Shown in pieces: positions 1 to 16,208 of a stretch of 17,884 nt of DNA (positions are counted from its first letter, which is position 1; every line of letters starts with the position of its first letter). A program made the position numbers and the translations under genes. The DNA is from a virus: IMG/VR virus record IMGVR_UViG_3300045988_145198. One strand, written 5' to 3'. The notes under the pieces are model-generated. The model was not told the DNA's origin. It worked only from the letters and a program-made list of their open reading frames with translations, and ran no database searches.

Positions 1-119
1 GTCATGTTGCGGCTTATCTCGCGGCCGCGCGCGTTCTGCACGTCGATGTTGCGGGCGATGCTCAGCATCGATGAATAGATGAAGTCGGCCATCGGGTTCT
101 CGGCCTTGCCGTCCCGGTA
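1..119. repeat. Terminal direct repeat, copy 1 (identical to 17766-17884)
   Basis: Read base by base: gtcatgttgcggcttatctcgcgg...gccttgccgtcccggta occurs at both window ends. Confidence 0.95.
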
Positions 120-200
120 CTCCTTGATGAACTCCCGTGTGGCCTTTTCCTGCGGTCCTTCGATCAGTCCCGCGTTCTCCAAGCCCTCGAAACCTGTCAT
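1..200 (-). CDS. 5' part of a 98-aa protein directly upstream of TerL (small terminase candidate); continues across the junction into 17669-17765
   Basis: ATG at 198-200 (minus strand) with GGAG about 11 nt upstream. My translation is MTGFEGLENAGLIEGPQEKATREFIKEYRDGKAENP, then MADFIYSS..., which joins in frame to track ORF 17669-17857. The product call rests on position only. Confidence 0.6.
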   Translation of the reverse strand, partial: MTGFEGLENAGLIEGPQEKATREFIKEYRDGKAENPMADFIYSSMLSIARNIDVQNARGREISRNM

Positions 201-371
201 GAGAAATTGCTCCAATCACAGTAATGGTGTATATTCCCTGTTTGAAGCATTTTCATAGCCTGATTTTGGGGTGCCGTCCCTATTTTCGGGCTTTTTTTAT
301 TGTTTTGTGGGGAACCAAAAACGGTGGGCGCGGGGTGTTCCTTCGCTTCGCTTCTCAAAAAAAAACGACGG
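201..371. promoter_or_regulatory. AT-rich spacer between the HNH gene and the small-terminase candidate; candidate cos/pac and promoter region
   Basis: Clearly lower GC than its flanks. Contains a T7 run (292-298), an A9 run (357-365), ttttgggg (264-271) and ttttgtgggg (303-312), and cttcg repeated at 341-354. HNH next to terS is typical of cos-type phages. Track ORFs in this region look spurious. Confidence 0.3.
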
Positions 372-1139
372 TCACCATGCCGGCCGCGCCGGTTGCGAGC
401 CGATCGGGCCGGCATCGGGTCCGTTGGCGAGCCCGAGGGCCGCGAGCCTTGACCTGCGAGCCTTGAGCCTCGCATCGATGCCGGTCTGAGTGATGCCCTG
501 CCGGTACCACTGGAGCACGCCGGCCTGCAACCGTTTACCAACGTCCATGCCTCGCGCCCTGAGCCTGTCCATCACCTCCTGCTTGCCGGGGTCGCAGACC
601 GTGATGTCATAGTCCAGGGCGATCCACTCGTCCAGCAGCCGAGGGCTTCGCGGCGTGAAGGGCAGGGTCTTCACCAGCCACAGCTCCACCGGTTCCGTGA
701 CACGCACCATGTGCCGGTAGGCCCCGTACCATGCCCCCGATGCCATACGCCTCACCCATTCCACGGTGACGTGCTCGGCGTCCGAGCCCGGCATCATGGC
801 CTTGGCCAGTGCGTCGAAGTCCAGCACCACGGCCCCCGGTTGCCGGTGCATGTCAACATACGTTGACTTACCGCCAGCCGGAGGGCCGATGACCGCGTGG
901 ATAAGCGCGCCATACCCGTTAAGCGTCCGGTCGCCCCGAAGCGAGTTGCAGTGCTTGCACGCGCGGCGAAGGTTCGCCGGCACGGTGGGCCCGCCCGCGA
1001 TATGCGGCACGATGTGGTCCGTGGTGTCGCTGTGGTTCGTGCAGCCGGGCATCCCCAGCCAGCAGTCGTTGCCCCACCGCTCGATGACCTCGGCCGAGAC
1101 GGCTGGCGGCACACGTTGCCTATCCCTTCTGCCCGGCAT
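372..1139 (-). CDS. HNH endonuclease fused to a P-loop NTPase/kinase-like domain
   Basis: 255 aa. The N-terminal part has CWLGMPGC...DHIVPHIAGG...NLRRACKHCN, an HNH motif with Cys pairs. The C-terminal half has Walker A GPPAGGKST and a Walker-B-like AVVLDFD. ATG at 1139 with GAAAGG upstream. Confidence 0.8.
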   Translation of the reverse strand: MPGRRDRQRVPPAVSAEVIERWGNDCWLGMPGCTNHSDTTDHIVPHIAGGPTVPANLRRACKHCNSLRGDRTLNGYGALIHAVIGPPAGGKSTYVDMHRQPGAVVLDFDALAKAMMPGSDAEHVTVEWVRRMASGAWYGAYRHMVRVTEPVELWLVKTLPFTPRSPRLLDEWIALDYDITVCDPGKQEVMDRLRARGMDVGKRLQAGVLQWYRQGITQTGIDARLKARRSRLAALGLANGPDAGPIGSQPARPAW

Positions 1140-1302
1140 GGCGCCACCTTTCCACCTCGGCGCTCTCGTACCGGACCAGCCTCGTGCCCGGCCAGCGCGT
1201 CCAACGCGGCCCCTTGCCCACTTCCTGCCGCCACTTGCGCACCGTATCCGGCTTCACATGCAACAGTTCGGCCACCTCGGCCGTCGTCAAATACCCCATC
1301 AT
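1120..1302 (-). CDS. Excisionase-family / MerR-like helix-turn-helix DNA-binding protein (60 aa)
   Basis: Track ORF 1120-1428 trimmed to MMGYLTTAEVAELLHVKPDTVRKW...LVRYESAEVERW. GGAGGG lies just upstream of the ATG pair at 1297-1302, and the previous gene stops at 1308. Whether it is Xis or another regulator is unknown. Confidence 0.65.
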   Translation of the reverse strand: MMGYLTTAEVAELLHVKPDTVRKWRQEVGKGPRWTRWPGTRLVRYESAEVERWRHAGQKG

Positions 1303-1307
1303 CCCTC

Positions 1308-1664
1308 CTAGAGCAAACTCATGCGAGACTGCATCTGCACGGTCGGCTGAGCCGCCTCGGCCCTGCGCCTGAATACGCTTACCTGCCCCTGCGCCCACAA
1401 ATCGAACTGGCGTGCGTCCAACGTCCACGCGCCGCCCAGACGACGCACTCCCATGGCCGGCCAGTCGCCGCCCAATGCGGCCAGTTCTATGTCGTTGCGC
1501 AGGTGCAGGACCTTCAACACGCGCATCGAATCGGGCAACCCCGTATGCTGTTCGTCGGCAAGGGCGTTGATGGACAGCCTGAAGCCCTCCAGCAGTTCGG
1601 CCGCGTCATGCGGAGCAGACCAAGGGCTCAACGCCTCGGCAAGGCTCGGATTCGTTCGCGCCAT
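1308..1664 (-). CDS. Hypothetical protein (118 aa)
   Basis: Track ORF 1308-1772 trimmed to MARTNPSLAEAL... The ATG at 1662-1664 shares one base with the TGA of the upstream gene (TGATG coupling). Confidence 0.55.
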   Translation of the reverse strand: MARTNPSLAEALSPWSAPHDAAELLEGFRLSINALADEQHTGLPDSMRVLKVLHLRNDIELAALGGDWPAMGVRRLGGAWTLDARQFDLWAQGQVSVFRRRAEAAQPTVQMQSRMSLL

Positions 1665-1972
1665 CAGTCCACCACCCAAGCCCACGAGCCGGTCCACCGG
1701 GCCAACGCCTGCATGGCCTCGCGCGCATCCCAGCAGCGCATCCCGTACTTGCGGGTCTTCGAGACGGGGCATTGCGCCAACTGCATCATATGGAACGCCT
1801 GGTTGTCGTCGATGCGCCCGTTACGTCTGGTTAGTCCGGCCCAGCGTGCGATCTGCTCGATGGTCACCGCGAACGATTCCGTGGTCTTCCGTGATTCGAT
1901 GAACTCGTTGAGCTTCGGAAGCAACCGGATGGCCGCGTCCTTCAGATTCATCTCGAACGTTGCTCTGCTCAT
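1664..1972 (-). CDS. Hypothetical protein (102 aa), possible HTH
   Basis: ATG at 1970-1972. The segment VTIEQIARWAGLTRRNG looks HTH-like. No family recognised. Confidence 0.55.
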   Translation of the reverse strand: MSRATFEMNLKDAAIRLLPKLNEFIESRKTTESFAVTIEQIARWAGLTRRNGRIDDNQAFHMMQLAQCPVSKTRKYGMRCWDAREAMQALARWTGSWAWVVD

Positions 1973-2175
1973 AATCCGTACCCCTTACGTTGGTTTCTCA
2001 TGTCCCTTTTGGGAGGGAGTGCTGGAGAGGTCAAGACCCGAAGATTCTCGGCCGAGACGCGCGACGCATAATCTCGGCCGAAAATCCTCACGTGGGTCTC
2101 GCTTTCGGTCGGTCGGCCGTCGATTGCAAGAGCAGGCCGAAGCCTGCCGGGAATGGTCCCCAAATCCAGCCCCAC
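1969..2175 (-). CDS. Questionable 68-aa ORF (GTG start)
   Basis: Its stop overlaps the ATG of the next gene (ATGA at 1969-1972), which favours coding. Against this, the start is GTG, hand-counted GC3 is only about 63%, and the stretch is packed with short palindromes. Confidence 0.3.
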   Translation of the reverse strand: MGLDLGTIPGRLRPALAIDGRPTESETHVRIFGRDYASRVSAENLRVLTSPALPPKRDMRNQRKGYGL

Positions 2176-2424
2176 GCGATGCGTGGTGATGCTGCCCGAT
2201 TCCGCCTTTACCAGCGGCTGGATAGGGTCGGTGGCAACCTCTTAGTCTCGCTAATACCGCAGTTGCAATGCGGCTGACCTCGCGCCACCACAGCGCGCCT
2301 AGGTATGCCTAGCCCTAGCCATACGGGGCATCAACGGCGTTACATTCTCGATGGCCCGAATAGCGTCGGGCACGCGGAAAATACGAAAGAATACCGGCGA
2401 ATACCCCGGTGAAAACCGAATAAT
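2176..2424. other. Non-coding, repeat- and hairpin-rich gap in the early/late minus-strand transcription unit
   Basis: Three (a/g)aatac copies lie at exact 10-nt spacing (2380-2384, 2390-2394, 2400-2404). Hairpins are gcccgaatagcgtcgggc (2354-2371) and ccgcagttgcaatgcgg (2257-2273). Three CCTAG occur within 2298-2318. No convincing ORF. Confidence 0.5.
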
Positions 2425-2610
2425 CTACTCGGGGCCGTCCGGCATCACGGCCAGCGCCTCGATCAACGCGCGCACCTCGTCGGCCGTGAACACGTACACC
2501 TTCGAATGGAAGTCGCGACGCCGCGCGTGCGGCGTGATGCACAGCATCAGACAGCCGTTCGCGGTCACCGCGCTCTTGAACACATAACCCAGTTCACCGT
2601 TCGGCATCAT
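2425..2610 (-). CDS. Hypothetical protein (61 aa)
   Basis: The ATGATG at 2605-2610 directly abuts the TGA (2611-2613) of the upstream micro-ORF. No motif recognised. Confidence 0.5.
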   Translation of the reverse strand: MMPNGELGYVFKSAVTANGCLMLCITPHARRRDFHSKVYVFTADEVRALIEALAVMPDGPE

Positions 2611-2724
2611 TCACCCCCTCAGCCACTCGCCAAAACGGATGGCGCACACCGTCACGCCCCACCCGAGCAACACCCACGAAGCCGCCAACACCAGCAGCAC
2701 CGACTGACAGCACTTCCTAAACAT
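2611..2724 (-). CDS. 37-aa single-pass membrane peptide (not in ORF track)
   Basis: My translation is MFRKCCQSVLLVLAASWVLLGWGVTVCAIRFGEWLRG. Its ATG (2722-2724) overlaps the end of the upstream ORF, and its stop abuts the next ATG. Confidence 0.45.
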   Translation of the reverse strand: MFRKCCQSVLLVLAASWVLLGWGVTVCAIRFGEWLRG

Positions 2725-2890
2725 CCAGACCTCGATTCAACCGGCCGGACAGGCGCTCCGGCATATCCGCCAGCACCAGCACGGCACACGAACACGTCAC
2801 GCCCAACAACAGCCAGAAACCCACCACAGCGAAAATCAGGGCGACGAACACCGCGCAGAACAACAGGAACCGCTTATACAACCCGTGCAT
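2717..2890 (-). CDS. 57-aa hydrophobic membrane protein (not in ORF track)
   Basis: My translation is MHGLYKRFLLFCAVFVALIFAVVGFWLLLGVTCSCAVLVLADMPERLSGRLNRGLDV. The ATG at 2888-2890 overlaps the upstream gene by 17 nt. Confidence 0.5.
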   Translation of the reverse strand: MHGLYKRFLLFCAVFVALIFAVVGFWLLLGVTCSCAVLVLADMPERLSGRLNRGLDV

Positions 2891-3086
2891 GCTTCGCCTC
2901 CCGGATCACCCTGGCGAACTCGCGGTTGATACGCACCATGTCGCCCATACTCAAACCGCCCAACGCGAAGTAATCCCCATCGACACTGAACCGAATACCG
3001 AACTCGTAGGGGCTGCCGCCATCGCCGGTCAGCTTGAACTCCGCGCTGAAACGGTTCCCGCTGGACTCAGGATCAAACACTGACAC
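2874..3086 (-). CDS. Hypothetical protein (about 70 aa)
   Basis: Track ORF 2874-3179 trimmed to a GTG at 3084-3086 with GGAGGAG (3094-3100) 7 nt upstream. Sequence VSVFDPESSGNRFSAEFKLTGDGGSPYEFGIRFSVDGDYFALGG... The start is uncertain. Confidence 0.5.
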   Translation of the reverse strand: MSVFDPESSGNRFSAEFKLTGDGGSPYEFGIRFSVDGDYFALGGLSMGDMVRINREFARVIREAKHARVV

Positions 3087-3246
3087 CTGCGTACTCCTCC
3101 CACGCCTCATTGAGCGCGTCCTGCCACTGGAACAAATCAGCGGTATCCAGCAGCACTTCCAAATGCACGCCGGGACCATGAAAATTCAGTATTTCCACGG
3201 AAAACCGGTAGTCCTGATTAAGCGAGACCCGAATATGCGTATCCAC
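3073..3246 (-). CDS. Hypothetical protein (57 aa, GTG start; not in ORF track)
   Basis: My translation is VDTHIRVSLNQDYRFSVEILNFHGPGVHLEVLLDTADLFQWQDALNEAWEEYAGVSV. GGAGG lies 6 nt upstream of the GTG at 3244-3246. It is the first gene of the micro-gene operon. Confidence 0.45.
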   Translation of the reverse strand: MDTHIRVSLNQDYRFSVEILNFHGPGVHLEVLLDTADLFQWQDALNEAWEEYAGVSV

Positions 3247-3353
3247 GGCAAACCTCCATCGGTCGAATGATTAAAAAGGGTTCCTTCCCCCGACGTAGGC
3301 TTGAAAAGGAAGAACCAAGCCACATGACGAACGAACGAAGGAAGGAAGAATCA

Positions 3354-4037
3354 ATGGATAATCCCGCCGAATACATGCTCCAGTTCTTCAACTGCGAAGA
3401 GCGGGAAGACGGGTTCGACGACAACATCTCCAAGGCGTTCGGGCAGATGCACGATACTGAAACGTGCCTCAACGACCTGCTAAGCATGAACGTCAGACGA
3501 CTAGATACGGCTAAAAGTGTCATGCCCGGAATCTGGGAGAAACTATGGGCGTCATACGCCAACGCACAAGGGAATGGTGCCCTGGTCAGTTTTGACATGA
3601 AGCCACGCCGGGAGCTCACGCTGGACGCGGCACAACGGCAGGCATTGGAAACGATTGCGGACAAAACGCCGGCGCTACCCATGAAACCGTCGCCAGACAA
3701 TATCCAATCGGTCGGGGACTTCCTCGACGAAGCCATCAAGGCGGTGAGGGAAGATGACACTCTTCCCGATGATTTGCGACTCTTCATCATGAGGCTCACA
3801 TATGAAGCGCGACGGAATCTTGACGAATACGCAGCAGGCAACGACTTCGAGCTGAGGGAAGCGATACAGAAACTATTCGGCCTCCTATACGTAGCCGAAA
3901 CCCAAACAAGCAAGCCCGGAATCTGGGAAAAGCTCAAGAGTGCTGCAGTTAAGCCTTTCGTCGCGGCGTTGCTTGCCGAAGCAGCAAAACAAGTCGCAAG
4001 TGGCACGGCACAAGCCTTCCTGCAAATCACTTCCTGA
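3354..4037 (+). CDS. Low-GC orphan protein (227 aa from ATG 3354; alternative starts 3267 and 3324), moron-like
   Basis: The plus frame has balanced, acidic, helix-like composition, while the antisense ORF 3218-4048 is Ser/Ala-rich shadow. AAGGAAGGAAG precedes ATG 3354. The internal motif PGIWEKL occurs twice. No family recognised. Confidence 0.65.
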   Translation: MDNPAEYMLQFFNCEEREDGFDDNISKAFGQMHDTETCLNDLLSMNVRRLDTAKSVMPGIWEKLWASYANAQGNGALVSFDMKPRRELTLDAAQRQALETIADKTPALPMKPSPDNIQSVGDFLDEAIKAVREDDTLPDDLRLFIMRLTYEARRNLDEYAAGNDFELREAIQKLFGLLYVAETQTSKPGIWEKLKSAAVKPFVAALLAEAAKQVASGTAQAFLQITS

Positions 4038-4044
4038 CGTGCGA

Positions 4045-4275
4045 TCATGAGGTCATCCCCTCATAGAGCGAAACGGAAGCGAGCAACGCGCCGCCCATGG
4101 AGCAGAAGGCGTTGCCCCACATCTTCGCCACTTCAGGGGTGTCCAGCAAAGTATCCAATGATGATTCATCCAGCTTCTGAACCTTGCCGTCGCTACCGAC
4201 TGTGAAGTTCAGAAGCTCCACCGTGTCACCATCCGACATCTCGGCTCGAAGATACATTCGACGAATGTTCGCCAT
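4045..4275 (-). CDS. Hypothetical protein (76 aa) downstream of the Cro-like gene
   Basis: Track ORF 4045-4332 trimmed to MANIRRMYLRAEMSDGD... The ATG at 4273-4275 shares one base with the TGA of the upstream XRE gene. Confidence 0.55.
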   Translation of the reverse strand: MANIRRMYLRAEMSDGDTVELLNFTVGSDGKVQKLDESSLDTLLDTPEVAKMWGNAFCSMGGALLASVSLYEGMTS

Positions 4276-4511
4276 CACGCCACCTCCAAAGGCTTGAGGC
4301 CCAGGAGGGCGTCGCTGGGGACGCCGAGCCAATGGGAAAGGCTGAAGATTTCTGCATCGTTGAAACGAATCTTGCCGGTCAGCTTGTTCGACAAGGTGGA
4401 TTCAGAGATACCGAGCATATCGGCGGCATCCTTTTGGGTATGTCCTTGTGCGGCTAGTGTCGCTCGGACTCTCCGAGCTAAATTCGTCTGAAACGAACTA
4501 GATTCATTCAT
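4275..4511 (-). CDS. XRE-family HTH protein, Cro-like partner of the switch (78 aa)
   Basis: QKDAADMLGISESTLSNKLTGK is a classic XRE HTH. ATG 4509-4511 is preferred because a TATAAA (plus-strand tttata, 4519-4524) sits 7 nt upstream, suggesting a leaderless start. The track start at 4547 is a TTG. Confidence 0.75.
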   Translation of the reverse strand: MNESSSFQTNLARRVRATLAAQGHTQKDAADMLGISESTLSNKLTGKIRFNDAEIFSLSHWLGVPSDALLGLKPLEVA

Positions 4512-4600
4512 GGCAGCTTTTATAGCACGGCGTGGTGCGTTAAACAAGAATTCTGCGTGTCGTCAGTGTAGAAAATTCGCTTTATGCTAATCTTGTTCGC
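4512..4600. promoter_or_regulatory. Divergent promoter/operator region of the rep-cro switch
   Basis: Candidate -10 for rep is TATGCT (4583-4588), 12 nt before ATG 4601. For the cro-like gene, candidate -10 is TATAAA and -35 is TTGTTT (4542-4547) with a 17-nt spacer. The 7-bp inverted half-sites aacaaga (4543-4549) and tcttgtt (4591-4597) overlap these elements. A related palindrome, cttgttcgacaag, lies at 4383-4395. Confidence 0.4.
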
Positions 4601-4957
4601 ATGACAGCAGTTATGGAAGCCCCGCGAGCGGCTGAGCCGGCAGCGGGCAAGGCAGATGATTTACAGGCGATTGTCACGCGCAATATTCGGGTTGCGATGG
4701 CTCTTCGCGGCGTGAATCAGAAGGATTTAGCCAAGGTTCTAGGGATAGCCACGTCGAGTATGTCCCAGAAATTCACGGGTAAGACATTGTGGAATCTGGT
4801 GGATATAGAAAAAGCCTCAGGTTTCTTCAATGTGAAACCTGAGGCGTTGGTAGCGGGGCATGGATTTGAACCATGGACCTCTGGTAACGTTGTTGCCCAG
4901 AGGTCCACGGTTCAAATCCATGAAGCCCGATTATTTGATTTTATCCTAGCGGCGTAA
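4601..4957 (+). CDS. XRE-family repressor, viral (attP-spanning) form of 118 aa with ssrA-like C-terminus
   Basis: The HTH is QKDLAKVLGIATSSMSQKFTGK. Codons 83-95 are encoded by the tRNA-like attP core. The ORF ends ...EARLFDFILAA. It is divergent from a second XRE gene and lies immediately upstream of int. Confidence 0.8.
   Translation: MTAVMEAPRAAEPAAGKADDLQAIVTRNIRVAMALRGVNQKDLAKVLGIATSSMSQKFTGKTLWNLVDIEKASGFFNVKPEALVAGHGFEPWTSGNVVAQRSTVQIHEARLFDFILAA
4848..4884 (-). other. tRNA 3'-end fragment = presumed attP core
   Basis: The minus strand reads CCAG-AGGTC-CATGG-TTCAAAT-CCATG-CCCCGCT-A-CCA. These are the anticodon-stem 3' strand, variable loop, a perfect T arm, the acceptor 3' strand, the discriminator and CCA. 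There is no D arm or anticodon arm, so it is not a gene. It lies 92 nt from int. Confidence 0.75.
4859..4922. repeat. 26-bp inverted repeat (one mismatch) with 12-nt spacer, built from the tRNA T arm
   Basis: catggatttgaaccatggacctctgg (4859-4884) and ccagaggtccacggttcaaatccatg (4897-4922). The spacer is taacgttgttgc. Confidence 0.9.
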
Positions 4958-4975
4958 TGCCGCCGGCCGCCAAGG

Positions 4976-5815
4976 ATGCCGGCCGTGAGTATGCACAAAA
5001 AGCTGCCCCCTGCTCAGTGGCGGGACGAAATCACCCTATGGCTCGAATCGCTCACGGCGGCGGGCCTCAGTCAGGACACCGTCAACACGCGGCGGTGCAA
5101 GATAGGCCACGCGGCGCGGTGCCTGGATAAATCGCCCTATGACGTGACGTCAGAGGATCTAGTGCATTGGACCGCCTCGCAATCATGGAAGGCGGAGACG
5201 CGCAAGGGCTACCGAAACACGCTCGTCGGTTTTTTCCGGTGGCTGCATGCCACGGGCCGGCGCGCGGACGATCCGGCCGCCGCGCTGCCGAAGGTGCGCA
5301 AGACGCGGCCGCATCCCCGCCCGTGCCCCGACGCGCACATATACGCCGCCATGTGCGCCGCGAACGATGTGGAACGGCTCATGCTGCGCCTCGGTGCCGA
5401 AGCCGGGTTGAGACTGTCCGAAATCGCGGCCGTCCACTCGCGCGACGTGCTGGAAGGCGACGCCGGCCCGTCGCTGATAGTGCGGGGCAAGGGCGACAAA
5501 CAGCGCATAGTGCCCATAAGCGAAGACCTGGCGAAGCGGATAACGGCCGCGCCCGGTTGGCTGTTCCCCGGCCGGTGGCGGGGACACGTCGAAAAATCGT
5601 ATGTGTCCCGCCACCTCACACGGCTGCTGCCGGACGGTTGGGGGCCGCACTCGCTGCGCCACCGGTACGCCACGCGCATGTACGAGACCACGCACGATCT
5701 GCTGCTGGTCTCGAAACTGCTGGGACATAGCAGCGTGGAGACCACGCAAATCTACGTGGCGATGCCGGACAGCCGTCTGCGCGTCGGTCTGGACGCGGTG
5801 ACGTTGGCCGGCTAG
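4976..5815 (+). CDS. int: Tyrosine recombinase / phage integrase (XerC/D-like, 279 aa)
   Basis: Catalytic signature: RLSE...GKGDKQR...HSLRHRYAT...LGHSSVETTQIYV. It is adjacent to the attP-like core. The start may instead be GTG 4985 or ATG 4991. Confidence 0.9.
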   Translation: MPAVSMHKKLPPAQWRDEITLWLESLTAAGLSQDTVNTRRCKIGHAARCLDKSPYDVTSEDLVHWTASQSWKAETRKGYRNTLVGFFRWLHATGRRADDPAAALPKVRKTRPHPRPCPDAHIYAAMCAANDVERLMLRLGAEAGLRLSEIAAVHSRDVLEGDAGPSLIVRGKGDKQRIVPISEDLAKRITAAPGWLFPGRWRGHVEKSYVSRHLTRLLPDGWGPHSLRHRYATRMYETTHDLLLVSKLLGHSSVETTQIYVAMPDSRLRVGLDAVTLAG

Positions 5816-6069
5816 GCCGCGTGCTGCGCGCGCGACTTGGGCGTGATTGGGTTGTCCTTCCACCACGCCCATAGCGCGGCGCCCACGTTCCATGTGAGGG
5901 CGACGAGCTGGTTAACCGTCTCGTCAGCGATGGGGATGGTATCGACGCCGAACATGACCAGGCAAGCGTTAATCAAGCCGAGCAGCAGCACGGCGGCGCG
6001 GGCGATGGTCGCGGCGCTGACGCCGGGGGTGCGGGTGTCGCCGCCCTCCACTTGTTCTTCGTATTCCAT
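5812..6069 (-). CDS. Putative holin (85 aa, two hydrophobic helices)
   Basis: Immediately downstream of the endolysin, with AAGGAAGGA before the ATG. Hydrophobic segments are AATIARAAVLLLGLINACLVMFGV and LVALTWNVGAALWAWW, followed by a charged tail. Confidence 0.6.
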   Translation of the reverse strand: MEYEEQVEGGDTRTPGVSAATIARAAVLLLGLINACLVMFGVDTIPIADETVNQLVALTWNVGAALWAWWKDNPITPKSRAQHAA

Positions 6070-6071
6070 GG

Positions 6072-6926
6072 CTATCCTTCCTTTTCGGTGGTCTTGTCGG
6101 TGGCGGTCACGCTGATTTCCAGCGAGTCCAGCTTCGCGCGCACGGCGTCCGCGACGATCTTGGATATGTCGGCCGGGTTCGCTCCCAGCGCCTTGCTAAG
6201 CGCCTCGATCGCGGCGGTCTGCGCCGTCAGCTGGGTTTTGAGGTCGGCTATGTCGTAACGCGCCTGGATGACGCTATCCAACACGTTGCGGCCGTCGTTG
6301 CCCTTGGTCTGGATCAACGCGTCGGCGGCCCGGTCCTTGAGCTCGTTCCGGGTCTGGATGATTCCATCGAAGAGATTGCGGCCGTCGTTGCCCTTGGTCT
6401 CGTAAAGGTCTTGCGCACTCACTGTTCCTGCTCCTGTCAAAAGTTGGTTTGCTTTGTTGATTACATAATCCACGTCCAGACCATTCGCGGCCCGGTCGGG
6501 ACATCCTGCGTGATCGCTGCCTGGTATCTCTCGGTGCAACCACACGTTGCCTTTTAGCCCGTCGTGCCATAGGCGCGGCCAGCCGTATCGGCGCGCGATG
6601 TCCGCGCACAAGGCGGCGCTAGCGTCCATGCACGCCTTGGTGCAGGGGACGCCGGCCATGCCGCCTTCGTGCTCGATGCTGATGGTCTGGCAGTTCGACG
6701 CATAGTTGCTGTCGGTCCACGGCGCGTCAGTTTCTCGCACATACTGGTGGATCAGGCCCGTGGAGCCGATGCCGTATGTGCTGGACGCCTGGCGCACCGG
6801 ATTCTGAAACGTCGCGTCGGTGCCGGCGAGACGGCCTACCATGATGTGCAGGGTGATGTGCGTGACCTCGTAGCCGTTGCGTCCCGCGTAGTGGTTGGGG
6901 CTGCCTATCCATGTGCTATTGACCAT
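6072..6926 (-). CDS. Endolysin: N-acetylmuramoyl-L-alanine amidase (Amidase_2/PGRP type) with a repeat plus coiled-coil C-terminus
   Basis: The N-terminal 160 aa carry THITLHIMVG...SIEHEGG...WLHREIPGSDHAGCP, a zinc amidase pattern. AAGGAGA lies upstream of ATG 6926. Confidence 0.8.
   Translation of the reverse strand: MVNSTWIGSPNHYAGRNGYEVTHITLHIMVGRLAGTDATFQNPVRQASSTYGIGSTGLIHQYVRETDAPWTDSNYASNCQTISIEHEGGMAGVPCTKACMDASAALCADIARRYGWPRLWHDGLKGNVWLHREIPGSDHAGCPDRAANGLDVDYVINKANQLLTGAGTVSAQDLYETKGNDGRNLFDGIIQTRNELKDRAADALIQTKGNDGRNVLDSVIQARYDIADLKTQLTAQTAAIEALSKALGANPADISKIVADAVRAKLDSLEISVTATDKTTEKEG
6286..6400. repeat. In-frame 90-nt tandem repeat inside the endolysin C-terminus
   Basis: An identical 25-mer, ttgcggccgtcgttgcccttggtct, occurs at 6286-6310 and 6376-6400. 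It encodes TKGNDGRN(L/V)... twice. Confidence 0.9.
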
Positions 6927-6940
6927 TCATTTGTCTCCTT

Positions 6941-7183
6941 TCAATCGTCTCGATGCTCGAAAATCCCTTCCGGTGGCTCAGGCGGTGGTGGCGGTGCTCG
7001 CCGGTATATGTGATCCACGAGAGCACGGTTCCATTGCCACAACAGGGAATTGTCGGTCTGCATCTGTTGCGCGAGCCGGTACGCCGCCAACCGGTCGCGC
7101 GAGGCGGTTGCTACGGTCTGGATAATCGCGCCCAGCACCACGCCGGCGCCGCCGACCACCGACACGATTACTTCCTCGCTCAT
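6941..7183 (-). CDS. Small membrane protein with Pro-rich tail (80 aa), between the tail and lysis genes
   Basis: Track ORF trimmed to MSEEVIVSVVGGAGVVLGAIIQTV...RRAPPPPPEPPEG. ATGA overlap with the upstream tail gene at 7180-7183. Confidence 0.55.
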   Translation of the reverse strand: MSEEVIVSVVGGAGVVLGAIIQTVATASRDRLAAYRLAQQMQTDNSLLWQWNRALVDHIYRRAPPPPPEPPEGIFEHRDD

Positions 7184-7884
7184 AGCTCCACCACGTTGAG
7201 ATAGCCGGCCACGCGCATTATGCCGCTGTTGTTGGAGTGGAACGAGACCTGGATTCCGCCGGTGCCGTCGGATTCGATGACGGTCACACACTCAATTGCG
7301 CTGAACGCATTACCAGAGGTGCTCGATTCCGCCGAACTCGGGAGCAGTGACGAGGCGCCTCCTACCGTCGCCACCCCGATGCTTAGCCATGTCATGTCTG
7401 CGATACCGGAGAACTGCATGTATTCTTTGACCAGCCATCGGCCGGCCGGCAGAATCGCATACGCGCCCTTGCTATTGGCAGTCGTCTTGATGTCGGCGCT
7501 TCCGGTCACGTTGGAGAACATCATGTATGTGTCGCCGTTGTTCAGGATGAGGTCGTTCGCGGATCTTTTGAACCGGCAGCCCCACGTGCGTTTCTGTCGA
7601 ATCTCCACGGGGTGCCAGGCGTCGCCAAGACGGTAGTACAGACCATTGCGTTGCATGGTGTCACCGGTGACCACGCCTGATTGTCCATTCACGCCTTCCA
7701 GTGACTCCAATGTCTCCAGCGTGGTTGCAGTCACTGGCGATACGCCTTCGGGGGTCGCTCGCGCGTCGATTTCGCGCAAGACCTTTTCGACGCCTTCTGC
7801 CGTCTGTCGGAACTGTGTGGGGGCGGACGATACGAGGTCATCGGCCTCGATATAGGGGATGCCGTACACGCTTGTGGTCTTCAT
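7180..7884 (-). CDS. Minor tail protein / candidate receptor-binding protein (234 aa)
   Basis: Track ORF trimmed to MKTTSVYGIPYIEADDLVSSAPTQFRQTAEGVEKVL... This N-terminal pattern recurs in actinophage tail-fibre-like proteins. ATGA overlap at 7881-7884. Confidence 0.6.
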   Translation of the reverse strand: MKTTSVYGIPYIEADDLVSSAPTQFRQTAEGVEKVLREIDARATPEGVSPVTATTLETLESLEGVNGQSGVVTGDTMQRNGLYYRLGDAWHPVEIRQKRTWGCRFKRSANDLILNNGDTYMMFSNVTGSADIKTTANSKGAYAILPAGRWLVKEYMQFSGIADMTWLSIGVATVGGASSLLPSSAESSTSGNAFSAIECVTVIESDGTGGIQVSFHSNNSGIMRVAGYLNVVEL

Positions 7885-9410
7885 CCTTGTGATCCTTCCT
7901 GTGTTGGTTGTGAGAATTGTCGAATTAACGCGAGCTCGGCTAGTGTGAACCGGCACATGTCCCATGTGACGGGCCATGCACCCATATCCGCCCACGTGGT
8001 CGCGGTATCGGTCTTGACGGGCAACGGCCATAACGTGACCTCGTTGCGGAGCAACGGCCGCCCGCTCGACCACTGGTAGGTGAGCGTGCCGCCGATGGTC
8101 GCCCACGCGCCGCCCGTGGCGGGTATGCCGTCGTCGCCGGTGAGACGTGACGACGTGGCGCCCTGGATGACGAGCGGCCCGGAACTGGCGGTGAGATACA
8201 GGCGCGCGTGCGTGGCCGGGTCCAGCTTGCGGCCGTCGAACACCACCGTTGCCGGCCGTAACCGCCGGTCGATGGTGACGAGCAGTCGGGCGAACGCGTC
8301 ACGATCCGCGTCGGTCGGGGCCCACACGCTGCCGCCCGCGCGGCCCCATACGCCGCCCGACTCGTCGGCCGTCACCACGTCGGCCTCAACGGTGACGCTG
8401 GATTGCGTGGCCTTCAGGTTCGCCGGCAGCCGGCCCATGTCCGTCAAAGCAGTTTCGTGCTGGTCGAACTCAAGCGCGCCGTCGGACGCTTTCGCTGTCT
8501 TGCCCTGAATAACGAACTGGGTGACGGGTTCCGGGATCGTCAATGATTGTTCGTCGTCGGTGATGACGTCGGCGGCGTCGAGGCCGTCCAGCGTCTCCCC
8601 CGTCCAATCGGTCACGGTGAGCCTCGCCGTGTCGTCGATGCCGATGCTTGCGGGCGCGCCGAACGGCATGTAGTCGAGTCGGCTCGCGTCATGGTCGGGG
8701 TATTCATACCATATCGGCCACATTCGGGAGTGCGCGTAGAGGCGGTGGAGCAAAGTGAGCTGCGATGGGTAGTCGTCGGTCCGGTAGGGTGCCACGGATG
8801 CGGTGGCGTCGAGGCCGTTGGCGTTGGCCTGTGGCGCGTCCGCTTCCCTGGCTCGTCGGTTGAGCTCCGTCAATCGTTCGGCCATGGTGCCGACCCAATG
8901 CAGGCCCGTGTAGCGTGCATCGGATGATACGGGCCCTTGTTTCTGCAGTCTTTTCCACAGGATCATGCGGCTGGAGGCGCTGAGCTCCAACAGCCAGCCG
9001 TCGCCGCGGGGCCGGGCTTCGCCGCCGTTCTGCACCAGTCCATCGAACAGCGTCGTCGCCGCGCTTGACTTGCCGGACGGGTTGCCGGGCGTGTATGCCT
9101 GGTGCATCGCGTCCAAACGCATGCGCTGCGCCGACCATGCGCCCATGTCGTCGCGGAGCATGCCCCATGTGGGTTGCGCCGAGATCTGCACGAGCACGCG
9201 CGCGCCGGCCAGGGTGAGGGCGCGGCCGGTGAGCCAGCCGGTCGAGTCGCGTAGCCGGAACGTCATCACGGACGGGTCGGGCTGCTGGTCGATGCCGTCG
9301 GTGCCCCACTGGATGCTGAAGCCGTCCAACGCGGCCACGTCGTTGTCGTGGTCGTTGACGGCAACCCAGCCGTCGCCCCAGTCGAGGAACATGAAACACT
9401 GCTGCGCCAC
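7881..9410 (-). CDS. Minor tail protein, distal-tail (Dit)-like (about 509 aa; alternative ATG 9392)
   Basis: Only the C-terminal part of the 1155-aa track ORF looks real. The GTG at 9408-9410 overlaps the tape-measure stop (TAGTG) with GAGG 6 nt upstream. It lies directly after the tape measure. Confidence 0.6.
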   Translation of the reverse strand: MAQQCFMFLDWGDGWVAVNDHDNDVAALDGFSIQWGTDGIDQQPDPSVMTFRLRDSTGWLTGRALTLAGARVLVQISAQPTWGMLRDDMGAWSAQRMRLDAMHQAYTPGNPSGKSSAATTLFDGLVQNGGEARPRGDGWLLELSASSRMILWKRLQKQGPVSSDARYTGLHWVGTMAERLTELNRRAREADAPQANANGLDATASVAPYRTDDYPSQLTLLHRLYAHSRMWPIWYEYPDHDASRLDYMPFGAPASIGIDDTARLTVTDWTGETLDGLDAADVITDDEQSLTIPEPVTQFVIQGKTAKASDGALEFDQHETALTDMGRLPANLKATQSSVTVEADVVTADESGGVWGRAGGSVWAPTDADRDAFARLLVTIDRRLRPATVVFDGRKLDPATHARLYLTASSGPLVIQGATSSRLTGDDGIPATGGAWATIGGTLTYQWSSGRPLLRNEVTLWPLPVKTDTATTWADMGAWPVTWDMCRFTLAELALIRQFSQPTQEGSQG

Positions 9411-11488
9411 TAGTTGCCTCGCTTCCGGTCGTAGTCGCGGAGAATCTTCCTGATTTCGCGTGCCACGCCCTCGCGGTCCACGGGCGCGTTGAACGTGACG
9501 TTGAAAACGGTGGTCGTACTGGCCGCCTGACTGCCGGCGGTGGTGCCGCCGTTGAACACGACGTTGGATAGGCGGCCGTTGATGCTGCCGATGGTGCGGC
9601 GCACGTCGGTGTCGAAGCCGGTGCGCAGGCCTCGTGCGAAGCCCTTCATGATGAGCCGGCCGTTGTTGACGAGCATGATGGCGTCGTAGGCGGGCGGCCC
9701 CTTGTGTTCCTTGATCCAGTCGCCGATGCCGCCTATCCAGCCGGTCACGTTGTTCCACATGCTTTTCAGGCCGTCGAGGAAGCCGCTGATGATGCTGGAG
9801 CCTGCGTCGTACAGCAGTCTGCCCACGTTGCCGATGGCGGACAGGATGCGGCCGGGCAGTCCGCTGAACCAGCTGACCACGTTGTTCCACGTGTTCTGCG
9901 CGAACTGGGCGGCGCTGGAGAAGAACGCGCCTATCTTGCCGGGCAATGATTGGAAGAATCCGATGATGTTGCTCGCGCACGAGCCGACGAAGCTGGTGAA
10001 TTTGCTCCAGATATTCCGGCCGGCCTCGGTCTGGGTGAAGAAATAGATTAAACCGGCCACCAATGCGGCGATGAGAGTGATGATGAGCACGATGGGATTG
10101 GCGTTCATCGCCACGTTGAGTGCCCACTGGGCCACGGATGCGGCGGTGCTGGCCACACTGAAGCCCTGCAATGCGGTGACCACGGCGCTGATGACGCTGG
10201 CCGCCTTGAACACGGCGAAGCCGGTGCCGATGCCGACCAGGGCGGCGCTGATGGGTTCGGCGTTCGCGCTCACCCAGTCGCTGAACGCGGTGAGTTTGTC
10301 GGCCACGTCGCCCACGATGCCGGCGGCGCCGTTGAAGGCGTCGCCCAACGCGGTGCCCGCTCCGGCCGCGCCGCCCATCGAGTCGAGCAGGGGCGTGAAC
10401 TGGCCGATGAGGTCGCCGGCGGCTCCGGCGAGGCTTTTGCATGACTCCCAGACGGCGGCGAAGATATCGCTGGCGGCCTGTGCGGGGCCGGTGTTCTGGA
10501 ACGCGGTGAGGAAATCGGAGACCTTCTGTTTCGCGGTGTCGAACGTGCTGGCGGCGGTATCCCGGATGGTGAGCAGGAAGTCCACGACGGGGCTGTCCTC
10601 CTCTACGTTGAACGCGTCGCGCAGTTCCGCGCTGAAGTCGCCGTCGCGCACGAGTTTGATGACGCCTTGCAGGCCGGTGGTCGCCTTGCCGCTGAACGCG
10701 CTGATTTTGTCGGCGGCGACGCTCATGGCGGAGGTGACCGTCGGTTTGAACAGGTTGAACGCATCGGTCAGGCCGCCGACCACGGCGGCCTCGAGGTTGC
10801 CCATGGCTCCCTCCATGGTGGAGGTGCTGGTCGCGGCCTCTTTGGCGACGTCGCTCATGCCGAGGTCCATGATCGCGGCGGAGAACTCGTCCGCCGTGAT
10901 CTCGCCCTTCTCCATGGCGTCCCTGAAATTGCCGGTGTACGCGCCGGCCTTGAGCATGGATTCCTGGAGCCGGCCGGCCGCGCCGGGGATGGCGTCGGTC
11001 AGCTGGTTCCAGTTCTCCGTCGTGAGCTTGCCGGCTCCGGCGGTCTGGGTCATGACCATGGCCACGCTTTTGAACGTGTCGGCGTTGCCGCCTGCCACGG
11101 CGTTCAGGTTGCCTGCCGCCTCGGTCAGGCCCACGTAGTCCTTGACGCCGTTGGCGGCGAGCTGGGCGGTGGTGTTCTGCACGGTCGTGAGGTCGTAGAC
11201 CGTGCGGTCCGCGTAATCTCGGGTGGCCTTGGTGGCCTGGTCTATGGCGGTGGTGTCCAGTCCGGCGAAGCCCATGGTCTGCTTGAACTTGTCGGTGCTG
11301 TCGCTCATGTCCACGACGGCGGCGCTGAAGCCCTTGAGCTTGTCCCACAGGGCGGTCACGCCCTTGACGGCCATGCCGCCCATGAAGCTGCCGAAGGCGG
11401 CGGCTTTGCCGGTGACCTTGCTGAACGCCTTCACGGCGTCGTCGCTGTTGCCGGTGATTCTCACCGACATGATCGCGCTACGCGCCAT
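9410..11488 (-). CDS. Tail tape measure protein (692 aa)
   Basis: Long Ala/Gly-rich helical protein with a central hydrophobic block (PIVLIITLIAALVAGLIYFF). It follows the chaperone pair. GGAGGAGG precedes the ATG at 11488. Confidence 0.85.
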   Translation of the reverse strand: MARSAIMSVRITGNSDDAVKAFSKVTGKAAAFGSFMGGMAVKGVTALWDKLKGFSAAVVDMSDSTDKFKQTMGFAGLDTTAIDQATKATRDYADRTVYDLTTVQNTTAQLAANGVKDYVGLTEAAGNLNAVAGGNADTFKSVAMVMTQTAGAGKLTTENWNQLTDAIPGAAGRLQESMLKAGAYTGNFRDAMEKGEITADEFSAAIMDLGMSDVAKEAATSTSTMEGAMGNLEAAVVGGLTDAFNLFKPTVTSAMSVAADKISAFSGKATTGLQGVIKLVRDGDFSAELRDAFNVEEDSPVVDFLLTIRDTAASTFDTAKQKVSDFLTAFQNTGPAQAASDIFAAVWESCKSLAGAAGDLIGQFTPLLDSMGGAAGAGTALGDAFNGAAGIVGDVADKLTAFSDWVSANAEPISAALVGIGTGFAVFKAASVISAVVTALQGFSVASTAASVAQWALNVAMNANPIVLIITLIAALVAGLIYFFTQTEAGRNIWSKFTSFVGSCASNIIGFFQSLPGKIGAFFSSAAQFAQNTWNNVVSWFSGLPGRILSAIGNVGRLLYDAGSSIISGFLDGLKSMWNNVTGWIGGIGDWIKEHKGPPAYDAIMLVNNGRLIMKGFARGLRTGFDTDVRRTIGSINGRLSNVVFNGGTTAGSQAASTTTVFNVTFNAPVDREGVAREIRKILRDYDRKRGN

Positions 11489-11905
11489 GTTCCGCCTCCT
11501 CCATGCGTTCCATCTCCTGTTCGAGCAGTCCTATCGCGGTGCCCCAGTCCAGTTCGCTGGCCTCGTTGCGCCATGCCCACGGCGTGCCGCCGAAGTGGTG
11601 GGCGAGGATGACGCTGAGCTTGCCGAGCGAGTCGTCGGGCCACTCGCCTATTCGGTAGGGTTTTCCGGGGTCTCCACGTCGATGTCGTCCACGTCGTCGA
11701 GCCACTGGTCGTATGGTTTGGACGTGTTGCCGGCGAACCTCATCGCGAGGTACGCCATGTAGTAGGACTGGCGGATTCGGCTGCCGTCGCCGGCGGCCCA
11801 CCCCTCCTTCTGCGCGTGTTCCTCGCATGAGGTGATAACGCGCGGGGTGAGCGGGGCCTCGCTGGTGTGGCCGTCGGTGTAGGTGACTTTCGCGATGTTG
11901 CGCAT
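11478..11905 (-). CDS. Tail assembly chaperone -1 frameshift product (GT-like)
   Basis: The -1 frame stays open from the G stop region to 11478 (…GKPYRIGEWPDDSLGKLSVILAHHFGGTPW…) and overlaps the tape-measure start. The candidate shift site is within CCCCGGAAAACCC (minus strand, about 11657-11669). That site is not a textbook XXXYYYZ heptamer. Confidence 0.45.
11648..11905 (-). CDS. Tail assembly chaperone (G-like, 85 aa)
   Basis: Located just upstream of the tape measure, with an acidic C-terminus (DDVDDIDVETPENPTE). AAGGGAG precedes the ATG. Confidence 0.6.
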   Translation of the reverse strand: MRNIAKVTYTDGHTSEAPLTPRVITSCEEHAQKEGWAAGDGSRIRQSYYMAYLAMRFAGNTSKPYDQWLDDVDDIDVETPENPTE

Positions 11906-11908
11906 GGG

Positions 11909-12292
11909 TTATGCTCCCTTGATCTGTTCCAATGTCTTGTCGACGTACTGCTTGTAGAGGCGCGTCCACTGTGGTTCGGTGGAGGCGACACCACTGTTGA
12001 CGAACTGGCGTCCGACGATGCGGCGTCGGGGCCAGCCGTAGTTGATGACTCCTGCGTAGGGCACCGATTTGCGGCCGGCGCGGATGATGCCGGCCTTCTG
12101 GGTCGCGCCGATTCGCACGCTGCCGGCCAGTCGGCCGGTCCTGCCGCGCGGGGCGAGTGCCTTGACCGCCGGCAGTGCGACGCCCGCCGCCTGCCGGTTG
12201 ACCTCCTTGAGCTGTTTGAGGTCGGCGCCGGCCTTGCGCATCGTGGCCACGAACCGTTTCTGGCCGACCACGTACAACGCCTTGTCGGCCAT
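11909..12292 (-). CDS. HK97 gp10-like head-tail joining / tail completion family protein (127 aa)
   Basis: Track ORF trimmed to MADKALYVVG... The motif APRGRTGRLAGSVRIGATQKAGIIRAGRKSVPYAGVINYG resembles the HK97 gp10 family pattern. TGATG coupling at 12290-12294. Confidence 0.55.
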   Translation of the reverse strand: MADKALYVVGQKRFVATMRKAGADLKQLKEVNRQAAGVALPAVKALAPRGRTGRLAGSVRIGATQKAGIIRAGRKSVPYAGVINYGWPRRRIVGRQFVNSGVASTEPQWTRLYKQYVDKTLEQIKGA

Positions 12293-12717
12293 CACGCGCT
12301 GGCCGTGGCCGTGTAGGCGCTGGCCTTCACGTTGGTGGCCGAGAACTCGAAGTCCTTCTTGTTGCGGGTCTTCACGTCGCCGCCGAACGCGATGGGCGCG
12401 ATGGTCACGGTCATGTCCAGTTGGAGGGAGCCCTTGTTGTTCGGTATGAACTTGGCGGTCTTCCGCTCTCCGGCGTGGTTCAGACACCACACCTGCGCGC
12501 CCTCCATGCTGTAGTCCTCGCCGATGCTGCCCGACAGCTTCCAGGTGGAGGTGAGCTCCCCGCCTTCCTCGTGCCCATCAAGGTAGGTGTCGGGGTCCTC
12601 GCTGGAATTGTCGGGGGCGAGCTCCACGCTCGTGCAGTCCACGTCGAGCCTGCGCTGGTCGTCGGCGGCACCGATGACCAGGCTTCCCGGTCCCAGGGTG
12701 CGAATCTTGTCTGCCAT
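12292..12717 (-). CDS. Major tail (tube) protein candidate (141 aa)
   Basis: Track ORF trimmed to MADKIRTLGPGSLVIGAADD...FIPNNKGSLQLDMTVTIAPIAFGGDVK. The composition is beta-rich and tail-tube-like. AAGGAAACA precedes the ATG at 12717. Confidence 0.5.
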   Translation of the reverse strand: MADKIRTLGPGSLVIGAADDQRRLDVDCTSVELAPDNSSEDPDTYLDGHEEGGELTSTWKLSGSIGEDYSMEGAQVWCLNHAGERKTAKFIPNNKGSLQLDMTVTIAPIAFGGDVKTRNKKDFEFSATNVKASAYTATASA

Positions 12718-12734
12718 GGTTGTTTCCTTTCGTG

Positions 12735-13432: not shown

Positions 13433-13434
13433 GG

Positions 13435-16204: not shown

Positions 16205-16208
16205 GTCG

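Follow-up and report, generated by a model that had tools for sequence, protein, structure and literature searches.

A probable integration-dependent immunity cassette in the viral-form genome of a tRNA-Met-integrating siphophage of Bifidobacterium longum

Described systems and the locus under study

Proteolysis of a repressor through its tag, a stable truncated Rep, and the resulting immunity have been demonstrated experimentally for mycobacteriophage BPs and its relatives only (PMC3694055, PMC4557955). An integration-dependent switch has also been described for the 17-kb Gordonia Cluster CW phages (Pope et al. 2017, PMC5559632), and was predicted from prophage sequences for bifidoprophages of ~18 kb that reside in tRNA-Met genes (Mavrich et al. 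2018, Sci Rep 8:12772, PMC6109161). The switch is already known for the phage group treated here and for other small actinobacteriophages, and these two publications overturn the suggestion in a preliminary description of our sequence that it might be undescribed for such small phages outside mycobacteriophages.

The stretch of DNA that we analyzed (IMG/VR record IMGVR_UViG_3300045988_145198; 17,884 nucleotides, hereafter the window) represents a temperate siphophage of Bifidobacterium longum in its viral form, an excised, circular genome of 17.8 kb. The phage belongs to the group of tRNA-Met-integrating bifidoprophages comprising Bl-1, Bb423phi2, and 689b-1. Positions 4275-5815 form a 1.54-kb three-gene cassette, with a cro-like gene pointing leftward and rep and int pointing rightward. 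By analogy with BPs, we consider it likely that this is an integration-dependent immunity cassette, BPs-like degradation steps included.

The prophages of Mavrich et al., namely Bb423phi2 and 689b-1 in B. breve and Bl-1 in B. longum NCC2705, occupy the same host genus, are of similar size (18.2 kb versus 17.8 kb for the window), and use the same attB, the tRNA-Met 3' end beside metA; int and rep lie at opposite ends of the prophage, as they do here. Their 39-nt att core, TGGTAGCGGGGCATGGATTTGAACC(A/T)TGGACCTCTGG(GT), is identical to the window core over 37 of the 39 nt, and their prediction is the one made for the window: a viral Rep extended at its C-terminus by an ssrA-like tail, giving integration-dependent immunity. 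Whereas their viral form was reconstructed in silico, the window is an actual excised sequence. The window, a B. longum variant, combines a 12-nt spacer with a 23-residue tail, whereas the published tail has 18 residues and the B. breve types in our analysis have a 5-nt spacer. Mavrich et al. make no mention of the inverted second T-arm, the embedded antisense terminator, or the alleles by which viral forms differ from prophages, all of which we describe below (PMC6109161).

The siphophages of Gordonia Cluster CW (GMA5, Jeanie, EricDab, and Emperor) have genomes as small as the window (16.6-17.7 kb) and share its cro / rep-attP / int arrangement, after which come convergent lysis and tail genes; a 37-bp attP lies in rep over a tRNA, although the target there is tRNA-Lys in Gordonia. 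The EricDab Rep tail ends in ...PPWAA and is devoid of an inverted T-arm copy. BPs, Brujita, and Charlie carry a cassette with the gene order and orientation of the window, as proposed in the preliminary description, and Angel and EricDab have its gene order; Angel gp34 and EricDab gp20 occupy the position of the cro-like gene. BPs, Brujita, and Charlie further resemble the window in that attP overlaps a tRNA 3' end within the 3' part of rep, and BPs-type systems share with it an ssrA-like ending on the viral Rep and a homologous short integrase in which no arm-binding domain was detected. The prophage Rep is truncated to 96 of 118 aa in the window and to 103 of 136 aa in BPs. The window differs from BPs in the branch of the host phylum, in a genome less than half the size, and in the initiator-type tRNA-Met target; its attP also contains a 26-nt quasi-palindrome, which the close BPs relative Angel lacks.

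Organization of the cassette

The features of the cassette, in order of position, are as follows.

4275-4511, minus strand: cro-like gene of the XRE helix-turn-helix type, reading away from rep, 78 aa with ATG 4511 as start (matches to Pfam HTH_3, HTH_31, and others)
4512-4600, no strand: presumed divergent promoters and operator, 89 bp, assigned by position only, with the role by analogy with BPs (PMC3694055, PMC4557955)
4601-4957, plus strand: rep, viral form, 118 aa, or 114 aa from ATG 4613, ending in ...LFDFILAA
4804-4845, minus strand: intrinsic-terminator-like hairpin (4845-4814) and T-run, directly after the tRNA CCA and antisense inside rep (codons for EKASGFFNVKPEA)
4848-4884, minus strand: attP common core, 37 bp that match exactly the 3' end of the initiator-type tRNA-Met of the host
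4878-4884, no strand: CCTCTGG segment, within which strand exchange would have to fall were attP a plain attL/attR hybrid
4885-4896, no strand: 12-nt spacer between the inverted-repeat arms, the first phage-specific bases past the core
4897-4922, plus strand: arm2, an inverted second copy resembling the T arm, CCAGAGGTC-CACGG-TTCAAAT-CCATG, in the stretch that encodes the tail
4946-4954, plus strand: Leu-Ala-Ala codons of the viral Rep C-terminus, an ssrA-like ending (translation, ...FILAA)
4976-5815, plus strand: int, short tyrosine integrase, 279 aa (PF00589), with alternative starts at GTG 4985 or ATG 4991

The second XRE gene, said earlier to diverge from a short promoter region, is separated from rep by the 89-bp gap, and a 78-aa gene is called at its position in the prophage loci as well. 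A scan for the sigma-70 consensus found no convincing promoter in 4512-4600. Translation and Pfam likewise uphold the 118-aa XRE-HTH reading frame: the rep product matches BetR and HTH_26, which are Cro/C1-type helix-turn-helix domains. Residues 1-95 are common to the viral and prophage forms, residues 96-118 constitute a viral-only tail, and an identical 114-aa protein (P0001) occurs on at least 24 contigs. Pfam searches recognized no further regulatory gene, such as a separate xis, cII, or cIII, beside the cassette.

The integrase gene begins 19 nt past the rep stop codon on the same strand, as had been read from the sequence and as the ORF list and the PF00589 match confirm; rep and int are co-directional and presumably co-transcribed. 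The catalytic domain is the only Pfam match of int, no arm-binding domain was detected, and at 279 aa the protein is too short to hold one. Its closest relative is the integrase of Gordonia phage EricDab (46% identity), and among solved structures int matches 5vfz ("Gp33") best and then XerC and XerD, over residues 22-273. The comparison with BPs put forward in the preliminary description held for one of its two proteins: int shares 44% identity (E 1e-52) with gp32 of the Cluster G mycobacteriophages, which are relatives of BPs, whereas Rep has no significant similarity to BPs gp33 and yields only weak matches (E about 1e-3), to other phage repressors. The integrase is therefore of the BPs/Brujita kind, and the DNA-binding part of Rep is analogous, not demonstrably homologous, to gp33.

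The hairpin antisense to rep has a 12-bp stem with 7 G-C pairs and the tail TTTTTCTATA (terminator scan, with which the inverted-repeat list agrees), and its arms have undergone a compensatory change, from CAGG/CCTG to CCGG/CCGG, in 3 prophage loci (L001, L025, and L028). We presume that it serves as the terminator of the reconstituted tRNA. Both this hairpin and the inverted second T-arm had been missed in the preliminary description.

attP core and the integrated form

The common core spans the 3' strand of the anticodon stem, the variable loop, the T arm, the acceptor strand, the discriminator, and CCA, the minus strand of 4848-4884 reading CCAGAGGTC-CATGG-TTCAAAT-CCATG-CCCCGCT-A-CCA. ARAGORN found no complete tRNA anywhere in the window, so the 5' half is absent; the earlier reading of a tRNA 3'-end fragment lacking its 5' half is borne out, as is its placement, by coordinates, over rep codons 83-95. 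The same 3' half is present in 122 tRNA-Met genes across Bifidobacteriaceae, which answers in the affirmative whether plausible hosts possess such a tRNA. Rfam matches on the core were spurious hits to microRNA hairpins and reflect the inverted repeat.

Integration takes place at the 3' end of the initiator-type tRNA-Met gene beside metA and swaps rep residues 96-118 for a leucine and a stop codon. The crossover falls within the 37-bp core in the B. longum genomes at NCBI and in ten complete prophage loci, and BLAST breakpoints against one of the prophages (L022) lie at 4884 and 4848; the attB and integrated copies anticipated for Bifidobacterium were thus found. At the rep-side junctions (L001, L002, and L022-L031), the core is followed by GTTATGAG and the tRNA 5' half, yielding an intact tRNA-Met on which ARAGORN and Rfam agree. 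The lysogen rep continues through the antisense anticodon loop of this tRNA as ...tct ggg tta tga and stops at ...PWTSGL* inside the antisense tRNA-Met in 12 lysogen loci, so that the predicted stop at about 96 aa, with loss of the LAA tail, can be read directly across the junctions of B. longum prophages. The exact ...PWTSGL ending recurs in 39 database homologues from Bifidobacterium and Alloscardovia, and protein databases contain both these endings and tailed viral forms. At about 20 of the 122 tRNA-Met loci, across Bifidobacterium, Gardnerella, and Alloscardovia, repressor N-termini of at least 3 different families carry the C-terminal segment ...VAGHGFEPWTSGL encoded by att.

The int-side junctions consist of host DNA, a core copy, the spacer, arm2, and int. 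The tail codons and the inverted second T-arm copy accordingly travel with int to the other end of the prophage, away from the rep promoter region. In lysogens, int lies 17.8 kb from rep, preceded by host DNA, and a homoserine O-succinyltransferase gene (PF04204) adjoins the rep-side junction at the opposite end; the separation of int from the rep promoter, proposed earlier, is evident in this arrangement.

In the switch modeled on BPs, the 118-aa viral Rep would be degraded via its C-terminal LAA, probably by ClpXP. Because the viral Rep would be lost through this tag, repression would have to await integration of the genome by Int and synthesis of the stable 96-aa Rep, and the loss of int transcription from the rep promoter would stabilize the prophage. 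The cassette represents a natural minimal lysogeny module for Bifidobacterium, a genus with few genetic tools.

C-terminal tail of the viral repressor

Among 37 distinct viral tails, 24 end in LAA and 4 more in LTA, LVA, or LAS; outside these endings the tails diverge, and the reading frame even shifts relative to arm2. That LAA has been kept in divergent, frame-shifted tails is, at the level of sequence comparison, evidence that the ending is under selection. The bifidobacterial tmRNA tag, ...AKSNRTEFALAA, ends in ...EFALAA, as read by hand from a contig (L277) that carries the published B. breve tmRNA att site beside a tmRNA-integrated prophage. A scan of viral contigs for tmRNA 3' ends returned mostly tRNA arrays of unrelated phages.

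The position of attP in rep might instead be a by-product of tRNA targeting, in which case the 118-aa and 96-aa proteins would both be working repressors, the tail would not be a degron, and immunity would be independent of integration. Such a reading would accommodate one viral-form lineage in which the tail lacks arm2 and ends in ...YWALVD, by which the LAA ending is not universal, and an integrase without a clear C-terminal tag: Int ends in ...DAVTLAG, with no obvious degradation signal, and its relatives end in ...LQA, ...PGA, or ...RLI, none clearly of the LAA type, whereas BPs Int reportedly carries a degradation tag. It would also agree with the similar DNA binding of BPs gp33-136 and gp33-103, from which it follows that a tail need not affect DNA binding (PMC4557955). 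However, it would leave the recurrence of LAA or a close variant despite divergence and frame shifts, as well as the match of LAA to the ...ALAA of the bifidobacterial tmRNA tag, to coincidence, and the window shares its integrase family and cassette layout with systems whose tag has been demonstrated to work. We therefore regard a by-product as unlikely and favor the degradation-tag switch.

Inverted repeat at attP

Together with 4859-4884, arm2 forms a 26-nt inverted repeat, or quasi-palindrome, complementary at 25 of 26 positions, and the corresponding RNA hairpin is very stable (fold z-score -7.1). Across phage types the motif persists as DNA while being read in two different frames (RSTVQIH versus GPRFKSM), with spacers of 5, 7, 12, or 14 nt in related phages; no arm2-like repeat is present in Angel or EricDab. 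A scan with a pattern specific for the viral-form attP retrieved 1 viral contig and 0 metagenome contigs, and a looser pattern retrieved 23 loci.

The tail region might be constrained mainly as nucleic acid, the 26-nt repeat being an accessory Int-binding site or an RNA hairpin that controls int expression or mRNA processing, with the peptide secondary. Conservation of arm2 as DNA in two frames over variable spacers, the stability of the hairpin, and covariation of the int-side core copies with arm2 would all fit such a constraint, as would the extra displaced half-site in attP that Lunt and Hatfull are said to have found in 2016 to be required by Brujita Int. It would, however, leave the convergence on LAA after arm2 unexplained, and Angel and EricDab, with a working switch or the same layout, do without the repeat; as the principal constraint, it is very unlikely, although a role as nucleic acid and the degradation-tag switch are compatible rather than exclusive.

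The core copies differ between the two forms of the genome. At 4873 and 4876-4877, viral attP copies equal the rep-side copy, whereas int-side copies differ: the int-side copies of prophages pair perfectly with arm2, whereas viral attP and the working tRNA copies stay tRNA-like. The int-side changes toward arm2 pairing (A to G, A to T, or GA to TT) occur in at least 9 host flanks and 3 phage types. If attP is simply a hybrid of attL and attR, strand exchange would be restricted to CCTCTGG, a placement in some tension with other data. A crossover in the T-loop predicts that viral attP equals the int-side copy, which is observed in only about 2 of 21 viral forms; it would still be compatible with the data if prophages with an imperfect repeat excised much more often. 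A crossover in the spacer or the anticodon loop was rejected, since attP and attB have no sequence in common in either stretch and spacer lengths range from 5 to 14 nt. An origin of the int-side alleles by Int-mediated inversion across the two T-loops was likewise discarded: in prophages, arm2 is unchanged and the spacer keeps its orientation.

That arm2 is an active part of the switch, not debris, is improbable. Were it active, it might template a "correction" of the neighboring quasi-palindrome after integration; with exchange in CCTCTGG, excision would then return an initiator tRNA with a broken T-stem, which would penalize curing and lock the prophage in. Alternatively, a perfect versus an imperfect hairpin upstream of int would set the rate of excision. 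The asymmetry of the quasi-palindrome between viral and prophage forms bears on how integrases without an arm-binding domain recognize attP.

Viral form, host, and prevalence

The window consists of a circular 17,765-bp phage genome and a 119-bp terminal assembly overlap. Prophages in B. longum genomes are more than 99.5% identical to it, and the prophage in CP118598.1 matches in two parts (99.98% and 99.56% identity), with BLAST breakpoints at 4884 and 4848. Two members of the same group, Bl-1 and 689b-1, had earlier been classed as cryptic (PMC6109161); the window is evidence that elements of this group are active and excise, and it documents attP and the 118-aa rep allele as they really occur in the viral form.

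That the viral form is instead an assembly artefact, a prophage circularized in silico via its 37-bp flanking repeats with a 118-aa ORF that never existed in nature, is extremely improbable: the repeats are short enough to confuse small-k assemblers and many related contigs terminate exactly at the core, but the rep-core-spacer junction recurs in independent assemblies, including k=141 contigs and 17.8-kb contigs from JGI and ENA, and viral junctions are tRNA-like at 4873 and then continue into the phage spacer, a combination of alleles that no k-mer path through prophages only could reach.

When the whole window was compared by megablast with the deposited phage genomes, the sole match was to 83 nt of Gordonia phage Emperor; no close cultured relative is deposited as a phage record. 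The prophage itself is very common, occurring in thousands of human-gut assemblies: 7,933 blocks of the assembly collection have an entry for its exact capsid protein.

Organization of the cassette and identity of the phage

The cassette in the window comprises the following features:

4275-4511, divergent from rep: XRE-type gene (ORF and Pfam match)
4601-4957, plus strand: repressor gene rep, 118 aa, C-terminus ...ARLFDFILAA, with Pfam BetR and HTH_26 matches
4845-4814 (feature 4804-4845), minus strand: terminator-like hairpin with a 12-bp stem, plus TTTTT
4848-4884, minus strand: tRNA 3' fragment, the attP core, CCAGAGGTC-CATGG-TTCAAAT-CCATG-CCCCGCT-A-CCA
4897-4922: inverted T-arm-like copy (arm2) in the tail-coding region, from the inverted-repeat listing
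4976-5815, same strand as rep and downstream of it: tyrosine integrase gene int (PF00589)

BetR and HTH_26 are Cro/C1-type helix-turn-helix domains, and the minus strand of the core reads as a variable loop, a perfect T arm, the 3' acceptor strand, the discriminator base and CCA; ARAGORN called no complete tRNA anywhere in the window. The ORF, Pfam and ARAGORN results bear out the elements named in the preliminary description, namely the rep ORF, the tRNA 3' fragment, int and the divergent XRE gene.

Because an exact 119-bp direct repeat occupies both termini (1-119 and 17766-17884), the window represents a circular, closed genome assembly (17,765 bp). Comparison with the prophage of B. longum CP118598.1 (L022) yielded two aligned blocks, 1-4884 (99.98% identity) and 4848-17884 (99.56%), and since these overlap by exactly the 37-bp core, the window is a B. 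longum prophage in its excised form. This prophage is very common: 7,933 blocks of the assembly collection list the exact capsid protein, and 2,437 list the exact integrase. One 279,743-bp scaffold (L003, 113875-134219) contains more than one phage genome length, with an internal junction of the viral type (intact 114-aa rep, then int); either two lysogenic copies in tandem or a join made during assembly could account for this.

Int shares 44% identity with the product of gene 32 of Cluster G mycobacteriophages such as Angel and Liefie (E 1e-52, 94% coverage), a cluster that includes BPs; with the integrases of the Gordonia phages EricDab and GMA5 (16.6-17.6 kb) it shares 46%. The best solved-structure match is 5vfz 'Gp33', presumably the Brujita Int, followed by XerC and XerD; an Int of 279 aa is too small to include an arm-binding domain. 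The cro-left, rep-right, int-right order is the same in Angel, EricDab and the window, and the similarity of Rep to other phage repressors is weak (E about 1e-3).

Integrated copies encode the lysogen form of Rep

We compared the junctions of two NCBI B. longum loci (L001, L002) and ten complete prophages with both junctions (L022-L031). In all of them, the rep-side junction reads ...GGTAGCGGGGCATGGATTTGAACCATGGACCTCTGG|GTTATGAGCCCAGCGAGC..., and on the opposite strand both ARAGORN and Rfam call an intact tRNA-Met(CAT). The rep frame crosses it as tct ggg tta tga, yielding ...PWTSGL*, so that the 96-aa lysogen form predicted in the preliminary description is present at these junctions. Next to this junction, the host carries a metA-like homoserine O-succinyltransferase gene and the ATP synthase operon. 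On the int side, the order is host DNA, core copy, 12-nt spacer, arm2, tail codons and int; integration therefore takes int away from the rep promoter region, as had been anticipated.

Across protein databases, 39 of 120 rep homologues end in ...PWTSGL, including NCBI proteins from B. longum, B. breve, B. pseudolongum, B. cebidarum and Alloscardovia, and viral-form homologues reside mostly on 16-18 kb contigs. In five rep-int fusion ORFs (P0018, P0049, P0057, P0086, P0094), the rep N-terminus is joined to the C-terminal part of the integrase; these ORFs probably arose from the cassette by deletion.

Viral Rep tails and the SsrA tag

The tails of viral Rep are diverse (e.g., NVVAQRSTVQIHEARLFDFILAA, DTRGPRFKSMGLPSLSKLSLAA, YPRGPRSKPMPRLILSLAA, ATPRPMVQIHAGLSRLSLILAA); LAA terminates 24 of the 37 distinct tails, and LTA, LVA or LAS 4 more. 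This ending is the same as that of the host-family SsrA tag, because a tmRNA fragment adjoining a prophage contig with the published B. breve tmRNA att site encodes ...AKSNRTEFALAA. The shared ending is good evidence, at the level of sequence, that selection acts on a degron-like C-terminus of viral Rep. One lineage is an exception (L058 2343-3277; proteins P0024, P0046, P0054, P0055, P0063): its viral tail, ...GAKPPWIYPDYWALVD, ends in ...YWALVD, with neither LAA nor arm2, and its 274-aa integrase ends in ...VTLQA. The integrase of a tmRNA-integrating prophage contig (L273, about 7050-7336) has an LAA ending, ...GEGRSLAA.

Mavrich et al. 2018 (PMC6109161) described the ~18-kb prophages Bb423phi2 and 689b-1, and mentioned Bl-1. 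These prophages occupy a tRNA-Met gene beside metA; the att site is 39 bp long, and int lies at attL and rep at attR. The authors noted that the viral rep genes, once reconstructed, code for additional C-terminal residues bearing ssrA-like tags, and drew the parallel with integration-dependent immunity. Such immunity was reported for 17-kb Gordonia Cluster CW phages (Pope et al. 2017; PMC5559632), and 'prophages of various bacteria' were already mentioned by Broussard and Hatfull 2013 (PMC3694055). The switch is thus already known for this phage group: the mechanism put forward in the preliminary description agrees with the structure of the integrated copies, but its novelty is forestalled by the 2017 and 2018 reports. 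The structure of the integrated copies supports an integration-dependent switch, and analogy with the characterised systems supports its function. The switch itself adds little, and the quasi-palindrome in attP, with its viral-versus-prophage asymmetry, is of modest additional interest.

A quasi-palindrome in attP differs between viral and integrated forms

Positions 4859-4884 of the core (arm1) form a 26-nt quasi-palindrome with arm2 (RNA fold z = -7.1). Phage types differ in the reading frame of arm2 (two frames) and in the length of the spacer (5 to 14 nt), yet its DNA sequence is conserved; Angel and EricDab have no such inverted copy. In about 19 of 21 viral-form attP sequences, arm1 is tRNA-like and hence has at least one mismatch to arm2, whereas int-side junction copies are perfect complements of their own phage's arm2 (29 of 33 in one comparison set), with copy/arm2 being CCGTGG/CCACGG in type A, CCTTGG/CCAAGG in the B. 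breve types and CCATGTTCC/GGAACATGG in type C. An unbiased metagenome sample gave the arm2-matching base in 19 of 20 int-side copies and the tRNA-like base in all 3 viral forms. The asymmetry was seen in three phage types and at least nine host flanks (loci including the L011-L031 int-side junctions and L279-L301). On the same host flank, the int-side allele tracks whichever phage is resident, and attB sites without a prophage are tRNA-like, as are all 122 functional tRNA copies examined at these positions, bar one that differs at a single base.

If attP is a simple attL/attR hybrid, strand exchange is confined to CCTCTGG (4878-4884), and exchange there implies that the int-side fragment came from the host and acquired its match to arm2 afterwards; this conversion could have arisen by template switching at the quasi-palindrome. 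A T-loop crossover, if true, would require imperfect-repeat prophages to excise far more often than perfect-repeat ones.

A putative terminator within rep and the target tRNA

The terminator-like hairpin lies directly after the CCA, antisense to the rep codons for EKASGFFNVKPEA, and in three integrated copies (L001, L025, L028) carries a compensatory change on both arms (CAGG/CCTG to CCGG/CCGG). Most simply, it is predicted to be a phage-supplied terminator for the rebuilt tRNA, a role that would also account for the strong conservation of that part of Rep. The target tRNA-Met (L001 10296-10372, minus strand) has a C1.U72 mismatch, flagged by Rfam, and three G-C pairs (GGG/CCC) at the base of the anticodon stem, which are hallmarks of initiator tRNAs; the target is of the initiator type. 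The trinucleotide after the discriminator base, across 122 Bifidobacteriaceae genes, is CCA in 68, CTA in 24, CGA in 11 and CTG in 10. Mavrich et al. 2018 (PMC6109161) mention neither the quasi-palindrome, nor the rep-internal terminator, nor the initiator-type nature of the target.

Related arrangements across Bifidobacteriaceae

Species-representative genomes gave 122 tRNA-Met loci with the same 3' half; in about 20 of them, a helix-turn-helix ORF enters the tRNA and ends in ...VAGHGFEPWTSGL. This att-encoded ending is joined to repressor-like N-termini of at least three unrelated families, in Bifidobacterium, Gardnerella and Alloscardovia (L150, L176, L215; L187, L224; L172, L189, L265 and others). 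A further set of integrated elements (L040, L046, L056, L068, L076, L111, L127, L128, L137 and others) matches the tRNA through its anticodon loop, reading core, GTTATGA and then unrelated DNA. These elements target the same tRNA but cross over elsewhere in it, and they lie in tandem with the small phage; rep in such arrays still has the ...SGL ending. In L046 and L111, the displaced core carries the G allele despite having no adjacent arm2.
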